This document shows positions 11,054 through 63,880 of a stretch of DNA of 64,000 nucleotides, in pieces. The translations under genes and the position numbers were made by a program. The notes under the pieces are model-generated. The model did not search any database and had not been told where the DNA came from. It worked only from the letters and a program-made list of their open reading frames with translations. Source of the DNA: Candidatus Doudnabacteria bacterium (GTDB lineage: Bacteria; Patescibacteriota; Doudnabacteria; UBA920); contig JAEUSF010000006.1 of NCBI GenBank assembly GCA_016788665.1, forward strand, positions 4,401-68,400. Reading direction: 5' to 3'. The first letter of the stretch is position 1, and each line of letters begins with the position of its first letter.

Positions 11054-11447
11054 GCATCCTCTTTAAGATTTAGCAGGTTTACCCTGCCAGTTAATACGTA
11101 TTATAGCAACCAAACGCTTTTAGGCAAACCAAAATTTTAAAAATTAAAAAACCACCTTTCGGCAAGCCTTAGGTGGTTTTTTATAAAGTTTTTATGCCCA
11201 TAACATTCCTTTGAATTCGCTATTTACGACTAGCGGAACGCCTCGCAAAGACTGGATTCTTAAAGAAATTTCTTTTACAGGACACCTATGATTGCGATTA
11301 TTTCCACACGCACAGTGTGCGCACAAACCCTGCAGCTGAGAAATAATGCTTAGTTTTGTTTGTTGTATTTCAGACATAAAATTTGAATTATCTTTTTAAA
11401 TCAAAATGTAAAAATCAAAAATCAAAGTTGCAATAAAAAATTTAAAA

Positions 11448-11819
11448 TTATTTTCTTCCCTTAAGTGTTAAAATACTCGAAGCTAAAATATTAGACACCT
11501 CAATCAATTCCTTTAATAGCCAATCTTGCTCTTTTGGCTCACCTTTTTCCAAATCCCTAAACAAAGTAATCCAGACTTTTGACTCATTAGAGGACTTAAG
11601 CGAATAAGTAAAAAAATTTATAAAATCTTTTTTGGAAGAAGCAGAGTTGGCTTCAACGTAGTTTGCCAAAACGCTTGTCCCGCTTCTTAAAAGCTGTTTA
11701 CCCATTACATCGTTTACAGAACTTTTAGGTAACGAGTCGATAAACTTAATTAGCCTTAGTACCCAAGAATACAACCGCTTTTTGAATTCAAATTTAAATT
11801 TTGAATTATCATTTTCCAT
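11448..11819 (-). CDS. four-helix-bundle protein (23S rRNA intervening-sequence protein family)
   Basis: KFEFKKRLYSWVLRLIKFIDSLPK..MGKQLLRSGTSVLANYVEANSASSKKDFINFF matches the TIGR02436-type four-helix-bundle family. Confidence 0.75.
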   Translation of the reverse strand: MENDNSKFKFEFKKRLYSWVLRLIKFIDSLPKSSVNDVMGKQLLRSGTSVLANYVEANSASSKKDFINFFTYSLKSSNESKVWITLFRDLEKGEPKEQDWLLKELIEVSNILASSILTLKGRK

Positions 11820-11861
11820 TTTGATTTTTCAATTTTAATTTTTGCGGCTTCGTACTACCAG

Positions 11862-12479
11862 CTATTCTAGGTTCCTAATAACCCCAACCACCTTCCCCTG
11901 CACCATCCACTCTTCTTTCGGATAAATGTCTTTATATTCCGGGTTTTCGGCTTTTAAGTACGCGCGGTTTTTAATTTGGATAAAACGTTTAACCGTTGCC
12001 TCGTCGTGTAACAGCGCTACTACTATGTCGTTATGCTTAGCTTCACGAGTAGGCCTAACAATAACCAAGTCACCCTCATAAATTCCCGCGTTTATCATAC
12101 TGTCACCTCTAACTTTAAGAAGAAAAACATCTCGCCGGCCTTTTACTAACGAAGAGGGTAAATTTATCCACTCTTCTATTTGTTGTTCTGCCATATGAGG
12201 ACTTCCGGCCTGAACCCTACCCATAAGCGGTACCGCTATAAGACCCTTTTCCAAACTTTCGCCTAGAGCGTTTAAAACTTCTATACCCCTAGCCTTACCA
12301 GAAATTTTTATATATTTGGCATCTTCCAAAGACTTAAGCAGCTTGGCAACAGCATTTTTGGAACTGACTTTTAAAAATTCGGCCATTTCTGAAATACTAG
12401 GAGGAAGATTGTGTTCGCGAACTTGTTTTACAATGAATTTTAAGAGCTCCTTTTGCCTAGAAGTAATTTCGTTTTCCAT
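11862..12479 (-). CDS. lexA: LexA repressor
   Basis: N-terminal wHTH, Ala-Gly cleavage region, S24 peptidase motifs VRGDSM (Ser) and KRF (Lys). Confidence 0.9.
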   Translation of the reverse strand: MENEITSRQKELLKFIVKQVREHNLPPSISEMAEFLKVSSKNAVAKLLKSLEDAKYIKISGKARGIEVLNALGESLEKGLIAVPLMGRVQAGSPHMAEQQIEEWINLPSSLVKGRRDVFLLKVRGDSMINAGIYEGDLVIVRPTREAKHNDIVVALLHDEATVKRFIQIKNRAYLKAENPEYKDIYPKEEWMVQGKVVGVIRNLE

Positions 12480-12600
12480 ATAATTTAGTTTAATGCTCTG
12501 TATTGGAATAATATACGAACGTACACCTCAAGTCAAAGGCAAAGAAAAACAGGGTAAACACCCGTTTACCCTGAAGTTATCCACAAGCCTATTTAAAAAA

Positions 12601-18090: not shown

Positions 18091-18149
18091 ATGTTTATAG
18101 TTATTAGTTATTATTTATAAAATATTTACAATCCATGAGCAAGCCAAAT

Positions 18150-23061: not shown

Positions 23062-23622
23062 ATGCCGGAAAATACTGACGAAAAAATTGCAGAAGATGTA
23101 CAAGCGGGAAAAACCCAGGCCTTTGGCGAACTGGTTACACGCTATGAAAAAAAACTTTCCCGTTACGCAAAAAAGTTTTTATTTGACCACTTAGAAAGTG
23201 AAGATTTAGTGCAAGAAATTTTCTTAAAAGCTTTTTTAAACATACAAAGTTTTGACACCAAACGGTCCTTTAATTCGTGGGTTTATCGGATTGCACATAA
23301 CCTATTTATTAACGAAATTAAAAAGAAAGGCAAAGAACCTCTGCCTTTCTTTGACCCAGACACTCTTTTTCCACATCCCACTGAACCCAAAAAAGCCGAC
23401 GACGCAATAAAGGAAGAAGAGCTGCAAAAAATGATGAATGCGTGCCTAAGTAAGCTTAGCCCTAAATACAGAGAGGTAATGATCCTATTTTACGCAGAAG
23501 AACTTAGTTACGAACAAATATCGGACATTTTACGCATACCGGCTTCTACAGTCGGAGTCCGGCTAAGCCGGGCAAAAAAAGCATTAAAAGAAAATTATGA
23601 CAAACTCTACCAAGGAAAATAA
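23062..23622 (+). CDS. ECF-subfamily RNA polymerase sigma-70 factor
   Basis: Region 2 (LVQEIFLKAF..SWVYRIAHNLFINEIKK) and region 4 HTH (YREVMILFYAEELSYEQISDILRIPASTVGVRLSRAKKAL). Confidence 0.9.
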   Translation: MPENTDEKIAEDVQAGKTQAFGELVTRYEKKLSRYAKKFLFDHLESEDLVQEIFLKAFLNIQSFDTKRSFNSWVYRIAHNLFINEIKKKGKEPLPFFDPDTLFPHPTEPKKADDAIKEEELQKMMNACLSKLSPKYREVMILFYAEELSYEQISDILRIPASTVGVRLSRAKKALKENYDKLYQGK

Positions 23623-34182: not shown

Positions 34183-34315
34183 ATTAAACGAGTAATACAA
34201 ACCAAATAGCCGCTTACCAATCTTCCCTGGGAAGATTTTTTATTTAATTACTTCTTAAGTTTTTTTAGCTATGGTGTACTTAGTCAATAAAATTTTAAAC
34301 TAATTGCACAAACTT

Positions 34316-35035
34316 ATGCCACAAAATTACAAGAAAGACTTAAGTCCGCCCAAAAAAACACTAACCCAACAACAGCTCGAACTTATTCGTAATACCGTAG
34401 CCAAAGGTGCCACGCCTGACGAGCTAAAACTGTTTTTAATAGTAGCCAACAGAGCCGGTCTCGACCCTTTTACAAGACAAATACACTTTGTAAAGAGGGG
34501 TGGCAGAGCCACAGTACAGACTGGTATAGACGGCTATAGAGCCATAGCAGAAAGAAGCGGGAGCCTGGCGGGCATAGAAGACGCATTATACGACGCCGAA
34601 GACCAAGTCCACCCGAACAAAGCCACGGTGACAGTTTATAGAATGGTGAGTGGGCAAAGAGTTCCGTTTAGTGCTTCTGCCAGATGGGATGAATACGTGC
34701 CCCAAAGCGGACAAGACTTTATGTGGCGGAAAATGCCCTACTTTATGCTCGGTAAAGTTGCGGAAGCATTAGCTTTAAGAAAAGCATTCCCAAACGACTT
34801 AAGCGGACTTTACATTCACGAGGAAATGCAACGTGACGACAACAGTACGGAAAATGATTCAGAAGCGCTAATAAATCACAACAGCACCTCTCAAGAAAAA
34901 GAAAGTTCTTTAGACCCCACATTAACTGCCGCAAAAGATTACTCAAAAAAATTCTGGTCCCGCGCCGAACAACAAACACCTGCCTCAGAAAAACAAGCGC
35001 CTGTTTACCAAAAAGAAGCACTAGACGAGCCCTAA
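34316..35035 (+). CDS. recT: RecT/Bet-family phage single-strand annealing recombinase
   Basis: LTQQQLELIRNTVAKGATPDELKLFLIVANRAGLDPFTRQIHFVKRGGRATVQTGIDGYRAIAERSG is a textbook RecT (PF03837) core; track start is TTG, ATG at 34316. Confidence 0.8.
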   Translation: MPQNYKKDLSPPKKTLTQQQLELIRNTVAKGATPDELKLFLIVANRAGLDPFTRQIHFVKRGGRATVQTGIDGYRAIAERSGSLAGIEDALYDAEDQVHPNKATVTVYRMVSGQRVPFSASARWDEYVPQSGQDFMWRKMPYFMLGKVAEALALRKAFPNDLSGLYIHEEMQRDDNSTENDSEALINHNSTSQEKESSLDPTLTAAKDYSKKFWSRAEQQTPASEKQAPVYQKEALDEP

Positions 35036-42573: not shown

Positions 42574-44247
42574 TCAATTGGGCAAAGAAAAATAAAAAGT
42601 AGACCCTAGGTTCTCCCCTGGGCTTTCTACCCAGATCTGTCCACCATGGGATTCGATAATTCCTTTAGAAACCACCAGTCCAAGTCCTGTACCCTTTTTA
42701 GACCTGTCCCCACTTTTTAGTTGTTTAAACTTAGAAAATAAAACAGGCAAATCTTCCCTCGAAATCCCAATACCAGTGTCTTTTACCCCCACCACAACCC
42801 GTTTATTTGCCTCATCAACCAACAAACTTACAACTATTTCACCGCTGTCAGAATATTTTATTGCATTGCTAATAAGGTTACCCAAAACCTGCGAAACACG
42901 TATTCTGTCAAACTTGGCCTTAAGTTTTTCAGGCGAACTTAAACTTAAAGCCAAATGTTTAACTTCGGCCTGAGGCTTAAATACTTCGACCTGTTGCTTT
43001 GCCACTTCGGCCAAATCGTATTCCTGAGAATTCAATTCAAACTTACCTGCTTCAATTTTTGCGACGTCTAGCAGGTCGTTAACCAACTCCAGCATATTAT
43101 TGGAAGCAGTTTCTATTGTTACCAAAGTATCCTTAACCTTGCCCGGTTCTGAACCTGTTGCCTGGGCTAAGTTTTTAAGCATAGACTCGCTTGACCACCT
43201 AACAGCAGTTAAAGGCGCCCTCAGTTCATGTACCATCATTGCCGTAAACTCTTGCCGCAATTTTTCCAAAGACTTCTCCGTAGTAATATCATGAAAAACC
43301 ACATTAGCACCAACTTTTTCACCGATTTCGTTCTTTACTGGTGTAATATTTATTTCCAAAGCTCTATTTTTCAAAACCACATCTGGAACAAAAATGCGCT
43401 TGTCTTCAGCCAAAGCTTGATCGATTTTCGTCCTTAAATCAGTTTTACCTGCCAAAGCATCTACAATATCGAACATTGTTATGTCGCTTACTTCAGAACT
43501 CTTTGCAGGTGCAATTTCCAGAATCTCCCTCACAGAAGGATTGGCAACCAAAAGCTGGTGGCTTAAGTCTACAGATATTATACCGTCAGTTATAGAATCT
43601 ATAACTGCCTTCAGTTTACCTCTTTCACTTCTCAAAACCCCTTGTAAGCGAGTAACAGCCAAAGCAGCCTGGTTAGTAATAGTGTACAAAATGGAAGCCT
43701 CGTTTTCCCCAAAACGACCAAATTGACCAGAAGCGACATTTATAACCCCCACTAACTTCTCTCCAATAAATACAGGTAAATTAAAATACGACTTCACCCC
43801 CACCCGTACATTGTCATCCAATAAATTTCCAGTCACACTTTCATCAAAACGACTCGGCTTAACGTCTAGGTTTAAAATGCCGGAAAAAGCCATTAGAATT
43901 TTATCCTTTACTTCTTCTATAAATTCATGACTAACGCTATTTTCCACATGGCATTTAAAAACTGCTGAGTTGTCAGTTATCAACATGTAGGAAACAGTAT
44001 CGTAGGGCAGTAAATTCCCCAGACTATTGGTAATAATTTCTACCACTTTTGTCGTATCCAAAGAATACCCAATACGCTCGCTTATTTCCTTTAACACCTG
44101 AGCCTGATAAACTTTTTGCTGTAACTGCATGCTTTGACTTAGACGTGTGCGCAAATAAGCCCTTTCCCTAAGGGTACGAAAAATATACCAAGCCATAACA
44201 ATGGCAAGGACAATAAAATCTGCAACCAAAAGTATGTTTATTATCAT
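42574..44247 (-). CDS. sensor histidine kinase (TM, GAF/PAS-like sensor, HisKA, HATPase_c)
   Basis: H-box MMVHELRAPLTAV, N box LISNAIKYS, G boxes DTGIGI and GTGLGL. Confidence 0.9.
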   Translation of the reverse strand: MIINILLVADFIVLAIVMAWYIFRTLRERAYLRTRLSQSMQLQQKVYQAQVLKEISERIGYSLDTTKVVEIITNSLGNLLPYDTVSYMLITDNSAVFKCHVENSVSHEFIEEVKDKILMAFSGILNLDVKPSRFDESVTGNLLDDNVRVGVKSYFNLPVFIGEKLVGVINVASGQFGRFGENEASILYTITNQAALAVTRLQGVLRSERGKLKAVIDSITDGIISVDLSHQLLVANPSVREILEIAPAKSSEVSDITMFDIVDALAGKTDLRTKIDQALAEDKRIFVPDVVLKNRALEINITPVKNEIGEKVGANVVFHDITTEKSLEKLRQEFTAMMVHELRAPLTAVRWSSESMLKNLAQATGSEPGKVKDTLVTIETASNNMLELVNDLLDVAKIEAGKFELNSQEYDLAEVAKQQVEVFKPQAEVKHLALSLSSPEKLKAKFDRIRVSQVLGNLISNAIKYSDSGEIVVSLLVDEANKRVVVGVKDTGIGISREDLPVLFSKFKQLKSGDRSKKGTGLGLVVSKGIIESHGGQIWVESPGENLGSTFYFSLPN

Positions 44248-44690: not shown

Positions 44691-46103
44691 TTACACCTCC
44701 TTAACCCTTCCAAACCCCACACTGTCCCTAAATACCTTCCCCGCCTTAAGCACAGGGGTATAAGAAACCGTAAATTTGCCATATTTAGCATTTATAACAT
44801 CTATAGCTATCATAAGAGCGCCTTTAGATGTATGCTTTTTAAACAAAGCCTGTTGAAACACATAAGGCTTTAAATTATCCACAGTAACCCCCACTAGCTT
44901 ACAATTAGCAATAACTTTTTCTGCTTCGAGAAAATTTCTCAAAATTTTCCGGCTTTCACAAAACAAGTCCCTTGCATCAAAAATAGGTTCACCCAAAGTT
45001 ACAGAGTTGCCATAAGAGTTATACTCTCCATCTCTTACATAAGCAACCAAAACATTACCCCACAGCTTCTTCCGCCTAAGCCTTTCAGCCACCATTTCGC
45101 AAAGCTTATACAAAACCGGTTCAAAAAAATCCCGGCCCCTATACTCTTTAGGTAAGGTATACATATGACCAATGGACTTAATAGTTTGGTCATGATGAAC
45201 TTTGGACTTCCAGCTACCATCTAATTTACCCATATGGTGAAGATGATACCCGCTTATACCAAACACTCTCACAAGTCGGCTTAAAGGAAAATCTCGCAAA
45301 TCTTTTAAAGTCCTAATCCCCAACTCATTAAGCCTCTTCTCCTGCCTCCTAGCTATTCCAGGAATATCAGTAAGTTTAAGTTTTTCATATAAATCTTCTT
45401 TAGTAAAATTTAAGAATTTAGAATGACAAATGCAGAATACAGAATTTTTACAAAAACATTCTAAATTCTTAATTCTCAATTCTGCATTACTTATAATTAC
45501 CAACCCATCAGGTTTCTGCATATCACTGGCTATTTTAGCCAAAAGTTTATTGTCCGCAACCCCAATACCGCAGGTTAAATAGTCTCCCACCTCTCTTTTT
45601 ATTCTCTGCTTTATTTCCCAAGCCACCCTCACGGCCTCTTCAAATGGATTAACTGATAGATAATAATCCAACTTTGCCTTATGGAAGTATTTTAGTTGAT
45701 CATTTTTAGATTTTGTAATTTGTATTATTTTTTGAAACTTGTAATTTGGAATTTGTAATTTAATATTACAGCTTGCTGTAATGTCTACGTACGCTTCATC
45801 TATACTTGCAGGCTCAACAAAACTACTATAGTCCCTTAAAACTTTTAAAAACAATCGGTGATAATGCCTATAAGCTTCTGCCCTGGTGTGGGTTAAAATA
45901 ATTTTAGGATAAAGCTTTTTAGCCTCCCACACAGGTGTACCGGTTTTTATACCCCAACGTTTTGCCTCTATACTTGCAGCTATTATTATGCCACCTAAAT
46001 GCTCGCACACACCTAAAGGCTTGCCTCGCCACAACAAATTATCCTGTTGTTCAACCGAAGCAAAATAACTATTCATATCCAAATGAAGAATAACGGGGGT
46101 CAT
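44691..46103 (-). CDS. dinB: DNA polymerase IV (Y-family, DinB)
   Basis: ILHLDMNSYFASVEQ, catalytic SIDEAYVDIT, little-finger domain; contains an in-frame heptad-repeat-derived insertion (LQIPNYKFQKIIQITKS) at 45711-45775. Confidence 0.85.
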   Translation of the reverse strand: MTPVILHLDMNSYFASVEQQDNLLWRGKPLGVCEHLGGIIIAASIEAKRWGIKTGTPVWEAKKLYPKIILTHTRAEAYRHYHRLFLKVLRDYSSFVEPASIDEAYVDITASCNIKLQIPNYKFQKIIQITKSKNDQLKYFHKAKLDYYLSVNPFEEAVRVAWEIKQRIKREVGDYLTCGIGVADNKLLAKIASDMQKPDGLVIISNAELRIKNLECFCKNSVFCICHSKFLNFTKEDLYEKLKLTDIPGIARRQEKRLNELGIRTLKDLRDFPLSRLVRVFGISGYHLHHMGKLDGSWKSKVHHDQTIKSIGHMYTLPKEYRGRDFFEPVLYKLCEMVAERLRRKKLWGNVLVAYVRDGEYNSYGNSVTLGEPIFDARDLFCESRKILRNFLEAEKVIANCKLVGVTVDNLKPYVFQQALFKKHTSKGALMIAIDVINAKYGKFTVSYTPVLKAGKVFRDSVGFGRVKEV

Positions 46104-46106
46104 AGG

Positions 46107-46155
46107 AGTAGTGAGTAGTGAGTAGTGAGTAGTGAGTAGTGAGTAGTGAGTAGTG
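46107..46155. repeat. (AGTAGTG)x7 perfect heptanucleotide tandem array abutting the dinB start codon
   Basis: Counted directly: seven exact copies 46107-46155, immediately 5' of the ATG at 46103 (minus strand). Confidence 0.95.
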
Positions 46156-46212
46156 CTACGGATCCCGTTACTACCGTCAACTACCCGCTACTTATTACCT
46201 GCTTTTTTAGCT

Positions 46213-46261
46213 AAACGTTCGTTCACCTTGTTATTTTATGACTATAATAAAAATTGTGCAA
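46213..46261 (-). promoter_or_regulatory. dinB promoter (TTGCAC-17-TAAAAT) with a GAACGAACGTTT LexA-box candidate just downstream of the -10
   Basis: Minus strand -35 at 46261-46256, -10 at 46238-46233, box at 46224-46213; same ACGAACGT core as upstream of lexA. Confidence 0.45.
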
Positions 46262-50371: not shown

Positions 50372-52084
50372 TTATTGGATTTTGATATCCAAAATTTTTA
50401 ATTTTAATTTTTTTTGACCATTCCAACTATCTTCCAATAGCTCGCACACGGCTTGAACTTTTGACCCATTTAAAATATTAGCAATTTTTGACCCCATGTT
50501 AAACCCAATGGCTGAAAAAGTTTTATTTTCTTTTTGCAACTGAAGCTGAACATGCTTACTCCCTTGTCCTACAATTTTATGCGAAACCACATCCAAATCC
50601 CTTATTAAAAATTTAGGAGCCGGATTTCCTACACCATAAGGCTCCAAAATCATAAGAGCAGATGCCGTATATAAATCAAGCTCAGAGACCAAAAGCTCTG
50701 CTTCTATTTCAACCGAAGCAATCAAGTCATCGGGTCGTAAATTACTTTTGGTAAACTCCAGCACTTTAAGATAAAAATTTTCAAAATTACCCGCGTGAAG
50801 CGTTAAACCTGCTGCCTGCTTATGACCCCCAAACCTTACCAAATTTTCTGACGCATACTTTAAAGCATCAATAATACTAAACTCGCCTACAGTTCGAGCA
50901 GAACCCGTGGCATAATCCCCTTCTTTAGACAAAACTATTGTTGGTTTGTTAAATTCTTCTGCAATTTTACCCGCTGCCAGACCCACCACGCCCTTGCTCC
51001 ACCCTTCTCCCATAAGTACCAAAAAATTTCTGTCAGCAATTTTCTGCGCCTCCTCTCGCGCTTCACTCATAATCCGCTCAGTCAATTCCTGTCTTCTCTT
51101 GTTTACAGTTTCCAAATACTCCGCCTTTTCACCTGCAGCAATTGGATCCTCTTCCAACAAGACACCCAAAGCCACGTCTGCATGTTCTAGCCTTCCTGCG
51201 GCATTCAAACGAGGTGCCAGAACGAAACCCAAAGTATACGCATCGGGTTTTTTTGTTTTAAAATCCAAACCCGCCTTGTTACATAGAGCCTTCAGACCTT
51301 GCCATTTGGTTTTTTCCAAAACCTTCAAGCCATACTTCACCAAAATCCTGTTTTCCCCTAACAGCTCGTGACAATCCGCAACTGTGCCTATGGCCACCAA
51401 ATCCAAAAGCCACTTTTCCCAACCCGGTTTTAATTTAGGATTTAAAATTTCAGATTTAAGATTTTGCAAAACCGCAGAAGCGAGTTTAAAGGCCACACCC
51501 ACGCCGGTTATGTCCCTATACGGATAGGTGTCCGAAGGATTTTTCGGGTTTATGAGGGCAAAAGCCTGGGGGGTAGGACCAATAATTTCGTGATGATCGG
51601 TAATAATAAAATCAACACCATTCTCCAAACACCAATCCGCCACATCACAAGAATTAGTTCCGCAATCTACAGTTATTATTATTTTTGTCCCGCTCTCTTT
51701 TATTTTTAAAACAGCATCCAAATTTACTCCATAACCCTCCGTAAACCTGTCAGGTATATAGCTATAAACATTTGCCCCCAATTCTTTAAATGCCAGCCGT
51801 AAAACCGCATTAGCTGTTACCGCATCAGCATCGTAGTCACCATAAATACAAATTTTTTCGCCCAGTTCGATGGCTTTCCAAATTCGATTTACCGCTTTTT
51901 CCATATCCAAAAATAAAAACGGAGCATTAAGCCCCTCGTACTTCGGATCCAAAAATTCTTTTACTGCCTCCTCGTCGCGTATTTTACGATTATACAAAAT
52001 TTTCGCAAGTACAGAAGGAAGATTTTCATAAACTTTTAAATCTTCTGCAGAAACATTTTCTTTTAATTTCCAGATTTTTTGCAT
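50372..52084 (-). CDS. recJ: single-stranded-DNA-specific exonuclease RecJ
   Basis: DHH motifs (IYGDYDADAV..., TDHHEI) and DHHA1 GGHKQAAG. Confidence 0.9.
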   Translation of the reverse strand: MQKIWKLKENVSAEDLKVYENLPSVLAKILYNRKIRDEEAVKEFLDPKYEGLNAPFLFLDMEKAVNRIWKAIELGEKICIYGDYDADAVTANAVLRLAFKELGANVYSYIPDRFTEGYGVNLDAVLKIKESGTKIIITVDCGTNSCDVADWCLENGVDFIITDHHEIIGPTPQAFALINPKNPSDTYPYRDITGVGVAFKLASAVLQNLKSEILNPKLKPGWEKWLLDLVAIGTVADCHELLGENRILVKYGLKVLEKTKWQGLKALCNKAGLDFKTKKPDAYTLGFVLAPRLNAAGRLEHADVALGVLLEEDPIAAGEKAEYLETVNKRRQELTERIMSEAREEAQKIADRNFLVLMGEGWSKGVVGLAAGKIAEEFNKPTIVLSKEGDYATGSARTVGEFSIIDALKYASENLVRFGGHKQAAGLTLHAGNFENFYLKVLEFTKSNLRPDDLIASVEIEAELLVSELDLYTASALMILEPYGVGNPAPKFLIRDLDVVSHKIVGQGSKHVQLQLQKENKTFSAIGFNMGSKIANILNGSKVQAVCELLEDSWNGQKKLKLKILDIKIQ

Positions 52085-61482: not shown

Positions 61483-61487
61483 ATTTC

Positions 61488-61943
61488 CTAATTCCTATTT
61501 TCTAATTCTATAGAATTAATCTTTTCTATTCTCTTCACATGTCTGGCACCTTCAAAACCCGTCTCAATCCATAAATCCACAGCTCTCATAGCTTCTTCGG
61601 CTGTTATAAAATGCGCGCCCAAAGAAATCACATTAGCATTGTTATGCTGGCGAGAAAGCTTAACAACTTCCTCCGGACCTCCATAAAAGACCGCAGCTCT
61701 TACACCCTTTGCTTTATTAGCAACTACGGCTTCTCCCTGCCCGCTATAACCTATGACAATACCCATACTACCAGCTTTGTGCCCAACTTTTACCGCACAC
61801 GGATAAACAAAGTCAGGGTAATCGTCTTCGTGTTTGTATTCAAAAGGCCCGCAGTCTTCTACAGACTGCCCCGACGTCTTTAAATGGTCAATTAACTTGT
61901 TTTTCAATTCAAATCCTGCGTGGTCTGAGGCGATATAGATCAT
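61488..61943 (-). CDS. rpiB: ribose-5-phosphate isomerase B
   Basis: MIYIASDHAGFELK.., GIVIGYSGQG.., RpiB/LacAB family. Confidence 0.85.
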   Translation of the reverse strand: MIYIASDHAGFELKNKLIDHLKTSGQSVEDCGPFEYKHEDDYPDFVYPCAVKVGHKAGSMGIVIGYSGQGEAVVANKAKGVRAAVFYGGPEEVVKLSRQHNNANVISLGAHFITAEEAMRAVDLWIETGFEGARHVKRIEKINSIELENRN

Positions 61944-61997
61944 TTTAGCTATTAGCTAGTAGCAAGTAGCGTGTAGCACTGCTAGCTACTAGCTACT
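61944..61997. repeat. heptad array TTTAGCT-ATTAGCT-AGTAGCA-AGTAGCG-TGTAGCA followed by inverted copy GCTAGCTACTAGCTACT, abutting the rpiB start
   Basis: Read directly; AGTAGC units are related to the AGTAGTR family. Confidence 0.85.
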
Positions 61998-63827: not shown

Positions 63828-63830
63828 ATA

Positions 63831-63880
63831 AGTAGTAAGTAGTAAGTAGTAAGTAGTAAGTTTGATACCTACTACTTACT
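63831..63880. repeat. (AGTAGTA)x4 heptad array abutting the galT start, with inverted copy TACTACTTACTA (63868-63880) forming a potential hairpin over the ruvX stop
   Basis: Read directly. Confidence 0.9.

Follow-up and report, generated by a model that had tools for sequence, protein, structure and literature searches.

Candidate LexA operators in the lexA and dinB promoters of a Doudnabacteria-like Patescibacteria genome

The DNA analyzed here, referred to as the window, is a stretch of 64,000 nucleotides (64 kb) from a Doudnabacteria-like Patescibacteria genome, and all coordinates below are positions within it. Both lexA and dinB are encoded on its minus strand. Genes were annotated using Pfam, and promoter elements were read from the sequence. 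The features of the lexA operon and its promoter are as follows.

11146-11179, minus strand: probable operon terminator after orf61 (AAACCACCT, a 13-nt loop, AGGTGGTTT and a T-run), read from the sequence
11192-11377, minus strand: orf61, encoding a Cys-rich 61-aa protein (CAHCACG...RCP), located after lexA in 71 of 73 related loci
11448-11819, minus strand: gene for a four-helix-bundle protein of the 23S-rRNA-IVP type (Pfam PF05635, 4e-18)
11862-12479, minus strand: lexA, encoding a 205-aa repressor (Pfam LexA_DNA_bind 2.9e-13, Peptidase_S24 2.8e-34)
12508-12513, minus strand: lexA -10 hexamer TATTAT (17-nt spacer, 10/12 consensus)
12510-12527, minus strand: predicted LexA operator at lexA, GGTGTACGTTCGTATATT, the top matrix match in the window (26.2 bits)
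12531-12536, minus strand: lexA -35 hexamer TTGACT, in which TTG-C is invariant across 28 aligned promoters

The window LexA has an intact domain architecture and aligned end to end with solved LexA structures. When compared with LexA of E. coli, QAGSP was recognized as the Ala-Gly cleavage site, GDSM as holding the nucleophile Ser and VKR as holding the general-base Lys. The helix-III residues that contact DNA in the E. coli protein are Ser39, Asn41, Ala42, Glu44 and Glu45 (PMC3091678); three of these five are kept in the window LexA (Ser, Asn, Ala), and Glu44 and Glu45 are replaced by Ala and Lys. These changes would be compatible with recognition of a different half-site.

No terminator was predicted between lexA and the two genes downstream of it, and the IVP-type gene is probably co-transcribed with lexA. 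The hairpin after orf61 is not listed by the terminator scan, for which its 13-nt loop is too long. No Pfam match was obtained for orf61. Because orf61 follows lexA in nearly all related loci and no terminator is predicted in between, the repressed unit is probably lexA-IVP-orf61, with orf61 as its probable last gene and a candidate for a conserved gene under LexA repression. The IVP-type gene lies downstream of lexA in the window and between the box-bearing promoter and lexA in several relatives (L001, L006, L017, L067 and L068), and these variable positions suggest that it moves within the operon.

The lexA promoter, read on the minus strand, consists of a -35 hexamer TTGACT (12536-12531), a 17-nt spacer and a -10 hexamer TATTAT (12513-12508). 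It was recovered by a consensus promoter scan with 10 of 12 matches. The sequence ATACGAACGTAC, given as plus-strand positions 12514-12525, lies inside this spacer. A sequence-only reading of the window had placed the promoter and its spacer box at these coordinates, and all of them were verified by reading the minus strand. The predicted operator occupies the spacer between the -35 and -10 hexamers and extends into the -10, covering its first 4 nt.

The second predicted operator lies upstream of dinB, within the following features.

44691-46103, minus strand: dinB, encoding a Y-family translesion polymerase of 470 aa (Pfam IMS 1.4e-36, IMS_C 2.4e-15, IMS_HHH_1)
46106-46155, minus strand: (CACTACT)x7 array in the dinB 5' leader (TRF: period 7, 7.1 copies, 100% matches)
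46210-46227, minus strand: predicted LexA operator at dinB, GGTGAACGAACGTTTAGC, second in the window with 21.7 bits under the lexA-derived matrix
46233-46238, minus strand: putative dinB -10 hexamer TAAAAT, read from the sequence and compared with the orthologue L081
46256-46261, minus strand: putative dinB -35 hexamer TTGCAC (weak), read from the sequence

On the minus strand, the putative dinB promoter reads TTGCAC (46261-46256), 17 nt and TAAAAT (46238-46233), and GAACGAACGTTT is located downstream of the -10 at 46224-46213 (minus-strand reading). The positions proposed earlier for this promoter and box were likewise correct, with the qualification that the hexamers are weak (9/12). The promoter scan returned only shifted variants (TTTGCA and TGCACA, each with 9 of 12 matches), and these were not above shuffles, in which 1.4 such 9/12 matches were expected. 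In the closest dinB orthologue (L081, 70% identity), TATAAT is located 3 nt upstream of the box. The predicted operator in the window begins 5 nt past the -10 and spans the predicted transcription start. Of the two boxes proposed to overlap core promoter elements, the lexA box overlaps the -10, and the dinB box abuts the core promoter, starting 5 nt after a weakly called -10.

Other genes of the window were also considered as possible targets. The sequence-only reading had named lexA and dinB as its two canonical SOS genes, and no other was added by Pfam annotation of 40 further proteins or by the tblastn searches given below. The only other DNA-metabolism genes among the 40 were recT and recJ.

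34304-35035, plus strand: RecT-family recombinase (Pfam)
50372-52084, minus strand: RecJ exonuclease (Pfam)

No LexA box was found at recT or recJ, and no matrix match above 8 bits was present upstream of either gene. Using approximate E. coli-like queries, tblastn returned no match to recA or uvrA in the window or in the 160 sequences searched, and ruvB-like matches in four loci, none of them in the window. Given that recA, uvrA and most other SOS genes are absent from the window and loci, enrichment of the motif was established for two gene families only, and these two (lexA and dinB) are the families that were used to fetch the loci.

Both predicted operators carry the 8-mer ACGAACGT, which is present in exactly two copies in the 64 kb, one at each site. 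This count of 2 was compared with 0.96 expected, and two or more copies were obtained in 25 of 100 shuffles. The probability that two random segments have an 8-mer in common on either strand was 0.125 for segments of 60 nt and 0.42 for segments of 120 nt. The shared 8-mer alone is thus insufficient evidence and within chance; comparative evidence was therefore needed, and the significance of the two sites comes only from the comparative tests.

Related loci were collected in two scans. The LexA protein was used to scan species-representative genomes, which yielded 80 loci, 73 of them from close relatives with LexA mostly 74-93% identical. The relatives are all MAGs and are labelled Candidatus Doudnabacteria, Patescibacteria group or "uncultured Candidatus Saccharibacteria". 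The DinB protein was used in a metagenome scan that yielded 79 loci, of which the 30 with 44-70% identity were treated as orthologues.

A box of at least 17.5 bits heads the lexA operon in 70 of 70 related loci with readable upstream DNA; the other three of the 73 start inside lexA or are N-masked upstream. Where the box does not directly precede lexA, it precedes a small operon-heading gene, usually of the 23S-rRNA-IVP type. The conserved block upstream of lexA can be written as TTGACA-N3-5-GGTGWACG-NNN-GTATAC-TAT. In an unbiased MAFFT alignment of 28 lexA promoters (alignment A1), the sole invariant columns were TTG-C of the -35, nine box positions (G72, T73, A76, C77, G78, G82, T83, T85 and A86) and the last T of the -10. 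The operator positions at the window lexA correspond to these invariant box columns. Because the right half-site (GTATAC) overlaps the -10 at lexA, part of its conservation may reflect promoter function. In several loci (L012, L042, L046 and L051), the lexA -10 is closely followed by another copy of the box in inverted orientation.

Among the dinB orthologues, 24 of 30 have a box upstream, and the other six loci are without a strong box on the scanned strand. Some of these boxes occupy the spacer of a TTGACA promoter, like the lexA box; the others closely follow a -10-like hexamer, which is the arrangement at the window dinB and in L081. More distant, outgroup lexA genes (Ignavibacteria, L079 and L080; Calditrichia, L076) have palindromes of the form GTGTAC-N4-GTTCAC or GTGTAC-N4-GTACAC in their own promoters.

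An 18-nt matrix was built from 39 unique lexA-promoter sites, all from outside the window. When this matrix was run over the window, the lexA site scored 26.2 bits, the dinB site 21.7 bits and the next match 12.9 bits. The null distribution was obtained from 400 simulated 64-kb windows (Markov-1), in which the maximum score had a mean of 11.0, a 99th percentile of 18.3 and a highest value of 19.5 bits; the score of the dinB site was reached in 0 of 400. The reciprocal matrix, built from 20 unique sites of dinB orthologues only, ranked the window dinB site first (21.3 bits) and the lexA operator second (19.1 bits). Training sites were picked by a loose regular expression ([AT]AC-N4-GT) and dinB sites were picked by the lexA matrix, so that the two matrices are not fully independent.

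In 697 kb of related DNA, 121 box matches of at least 16 bits were found, nearly all of them ahead of lexA, dinB or the small gene that comes first in the operon of either. In L093, the box-bearing small gene ahead of dinB is a GIY-YIG gene. A box-like sequence of 21.3 bits, GGTGAACGCAGGTATATT, was observed within the lexA coding region of L064 (1897-1914) and probably arose by chance. A scan of a viral collection with GGTGAACGNNNGTATACT gave 73 matches, close to chance expectation, and none in a TTGAC promoter context. Rfam returned two tRNAs and nothing else for the whole window at the gathering threshold, and no match for the lexA upstream region with E up to 1.

The comparative sites define the operator as an imperfect palindrome of 16-18 bp, (G)GTRWAC-G-NN-N-GTWYAC, with GGTGAACG-NNN-GTATAC as its commonest form. 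AC (positions 6-7) and GT (positions 12-13) are invariant in the matrix, and the first spacer base (position 8) is G in 38 of 39 sites (97%). Positions 3, 6, 7, 12, 13, 15 and 16 are invariant in the 39 unique lexA sites and likewise in the 20 dinB sites. Beyond its first G, the spacer varies (GAAC, GTTC, GATT, GGTC and others). The core ACGAACGT that the sequence-only reading had singled out is carried by both sites, and the matrix refines it to the centre of this longer palindrome.

The same reading had described the sites as close to the Gram-positive Cheo box, and this was upheld at the level of the motif class only. Strict GAAC-N4-GTTC with at most one mismatch was not enriched in the window (10 found vs 17.8 expected) and was rejected as the operative motif; the dinB site has one mismatch to this core, and the lexA site departs from it at three of eight core positions. 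A reading of GAAC...CGT as a promoter for an ECF sigma factor was also rejected, given a spacing of 4 nt, not ~16 nt, and the presence of a TTGACA -35.

Taken in silico, the candidate LexA operators proposed earlier are supported by all 70 readable lexA loci, by a matrix derived from foreign sites and by 24 of 30 dinB orthologues. It is highly likely that both sites are operators of the genome's own LexA and constitute a small SOS regulon in this Doudnabacteria-like Patescibacteria genome. By sequence criteria, they are very probably real LexA binding sites, and the arrangement would be an ordinary, well-understood switch in a little-studied lineage. The assignment to LexA as the bound protein draws on the location of the sites and on analogy; repression, RecA-dependent induction and the transcription start sites are predicted in the same way. 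A LexA dimer would recognize the imperfect 16-18 bp palindrome, (G)GTRWAC-N4-GTWYAC. At lexA, bound LexA would exclude RNA polymerase, and the lexA-IVP-orf61 operon would be autoregulated; at dinB, the bound repressor would keep the open complex from forming or the polymerase from leaving the promoter. Upon DNA damage, RecA-ssDNA filaments would trigger self-cleavage of LexA at the Ala-Gly bond via its Ser/Lys dyad, and both the lexA operon and dinB would be derepressed. Repression relieved through RecA in this manner is the textbook SOS scheme, and lexA and dinB belong to the core LexA-regulated set across phyla (PMC8565304).

Several other explanations of the shared sequence were weighed against LexA binding. 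It could be an intrinsic promoter element (spacer, extended -10 or discriminator) instead of a repressor site, given that the right half overlaps the -10 in lexA promoters and that GTATACTAT recurs. This is extremely unlikely, however, as the position of the 18-mer relative to the -10 is variable: lexA and many dinB genes have it in the spacer, and at the window dinB and in L081, L089 and L109 it comes after the -10. The second inverted copies past the -10 in L012, L042, L046 and L051 also argue against a promoter element, and the left half, GGTGAAC, is not known to play a role in polymerase contact. In addition, ordinary promoters of the window are without the box, with no other match above 13 bits. 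Coincidence, by which two AT-rich promoter regions share a CG-containing 8-mer, would account for the 8-mer count, which is not significant, and two segments of 60-120 nt share an 8-mer with P = 0.13-0.42; nevertheless its probability is negligible, since it is refuted by the scores from independent-genome matrices, by conservation in orthologues and by the reciprocal test.

It is also very unlikely that a different transcription factor binds the palindrome and co-regulates lexA and dinB. The bound protein is not directly identified by the sequence evidence, the motif departs from the strict Cheo consensus, and genes for other regulators are present in the window, among them those of an ECF-type sigma factor (23062-23622) and a histidine kinase (42574-44247). 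Against such a factor, the presence of the palindrome in lexA's own promoter in every readable locus is the signature of LexA autoregulation, and its sole other target, dinB, is a core SOS gene (PMC8565304). The geometry of the dyad (an N4 spacer with GAAC/GTAC half-sites) fits known LexA boxes (PMC3091678), and the box shows synteny with no regulator gene other than lexA.

Two further elements were found upstream of the lexA -35.

12550-12573, minus strand: terminator-like hairpin CAGGGTAAACGGGTGTTTACCCTG with a T-run, between orf78 and the lexA -35
12576-12585, minus strand: conserved upstream element TGTGGATAAC, containing the reverse complement of the perfect DnaA-box consensus TTATCCACA

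Of 70 lexA loci, 58 have an exact copy of the upstream element and 68 have it with at most one mismatch; it mostly precedes the LexA box by 56-58 nt. In 695 kb, 64 exact copies were found, 58 of them at that place upstream of lexA; three of the remaining six likewise precede lexA. The window holds one exact copy, and the element is present in only 5 of 24 dinB promoters. It could reflect control of lexA by DnaA, or it could belong to the 3' region of orf78.

The hairpin has a stem (GGTAAAC/GTTTACC) that fits a degenerate LexA-box consensus. Elsewhere the stem reads GTGAAC/GTTCAC or GTGTAC/GTACA, and in many loci it is LexA-box-like. Within the window, the hairpin ranks third under both matrices, and, at a score that is not significant, it is a possible auxiliary site ~43 bp away from the main operator; as a second operator at 12553-12570 it was rejected, given that 12.9-14.4 bits falls within the null range.

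The array of seven AGTAGTG copies reported earlier for the dinB leader was confirmed as 7.1 perfect copies at 46106-46155. It stops 2 nt before the ATG and forms the 3' arm of a partial leader hairpin, outside the operator. Period-7 arrays are present at 46106-46155, 63829-63861, 61945-61997, 61485-61508, 18098-18118, 11787-11842 and 11398-11426, with a unit that differs at each site. At dinB, a galT-like gene, rpiB, rpe and the gene for L7/L12, several of which are housekeeping genes, the array stops 1-7 nt short of the start codon, and two further arrays lie in the lexA-IVP and IVP-orf61 spacers. When self-identity in 5' leaders was compared at lags 5 to 10, only lag 7 was enriched, with 2-6% of leaders reaching 0.70 and none reaching this value at lags 5, 6, 8, 9 or 10.

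In the leaders of dinB orthologues (L083-L116), a long hairpin of inverted heptamer arrays was found in 15 of 21; measured against dinucleotide shuffles, z ranged from -3.3 to -10.2. These hairpins are unrelated in sequence, and the 3' arm often pairs over 9-14 nt at or before the ATG. This conservation of structure without conservation of sequence suggests sequestration of the start codon. Unlike most orthologues, the window dinB leader (46097-46209, minus strand) did not fold significantly (z = -1.97, or -0.87 with the box included), and its fold is weak because the array expanded beyond the partner arm. The array and hairpin architecture is also present at other window genes, which sets it apart from SOS control as a feature of the genome at large.

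Additional, undescribed control layers on both SOS units, a composite lexA promoter together with post-transcriptional control of dinB, are considered rather unlikely. The composite promoter would consist of a perfect DnaA box (TGTGGATAA) fixed 56-58 nt upstream of the operator, with the LexA-box-like hairpin in between, and would link production of the repressor with the replication initiator or with cooperative binding of LexA. At dinB, the leader hairpin of inverted heptamers would sequester the start codon, and slippage of the array, whose seven perfect copies in the window outgrew the partner arm, would adjust how strongly the mutagenic polymerase is translated.

With LexA as the probable ligand of both operators, the sites provide a well-supported predicted LexA-binding motif for an uncultivated CPR lineage with reduced genomes. 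The regulon is minimal as far as sampled, comprising the lexA operon and dinB, and the motif is directly usable for annotating SOS regulons in Doudnabacteria-like genomes. The general understanding of the SOS response is unchanged by this result. Specialists may not have expected the lexA-specific DnaA-box word, the small conserved orf61 of the lexA operon and the heptamer-array hairpins of the leaders.

An in-silico SOS network of Patescibacteria was reportedly described by Sanchez-Osuna, Barbe and Erill (2017, Environ Microbiol 19:3465), a study cited in PMC8565304 and PMC7739468. From what is said of that study, it concerns the same superphylum and also applies comparative genomics to LexA boxes, and the small regulon found here, centred on lexA and error-prone polymerases, is as would be expected from it. 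It is cited among cases of direct-repeat LexA motifs, and the motif so attributed to it would differ from the palindrome found here (PMC7739468).

By 2021, 17 distinct LexA motifs had been reported (PMC8565304). The E. coli SOS box, CTGT-N8-ACAG (PMC8565304), is comparable in that a LexA dimer binds a promoter-overlapping palindrome, regulates its own gene and has dinB as a target; it differs in half-site and spacer length, which are unrelated, and in Glu44 and Glu45, which are Ala and Lys here. Two other known boxes are nearer. The operator of B. subtilis LexA (DinR), the Cheo box, is CGAAC-N4-GTTCG (PMC3091678). It shares with the present motif a dyad spaced by 4 nt, a GAAC left half in most sites including the window dinB, and a position over core promoter elements of lexA and of the translesion polymerase gene; the repressor is in both cases a winged helix-turn-helix protein with an S24 peptidase domain. 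However, the right half here is GTATAC, GTTTAC or GTACAC vs GTTCG, the conserved flank is GGT- vs C-, GTAC or ATAC is a frequent left half, and the window lexA site (GTAC-N4-GTAT) misses three of the eight core positions.

The cyanobacterial LexA box, given as RGTACNNNDGTWCB for Nostoc PCC 7120 or as AGTACWNWTGTACT (PMC3091678), is likewise a pseudo-palindromic 14-mer with GTAC half-sites and a 4-nt spacer, and its left half is fitted exactly by the window lexA site (GTGTAC-GTTC-GTAT). The sites here differ from it in an outer GGTG- vs A/G-, in a right half of GTAT or GTTT vs GTWC, and in the near-invariant G as the first spacer base. By comparison with these boxes, the motif is a lineage variant of the N4-spaced GAAC/GTAC class of Gram-positive bacteria and cyanobacteria and not a strict Cheo box. 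Placing this LexA in the GAAC/GTAC-N4 class helps to trace the evolution of LexA motifs, in which its predicted operator sits between the B. subtilis and cyanobacterial boxes with a GGT flank and a GTATAC right half of its own.
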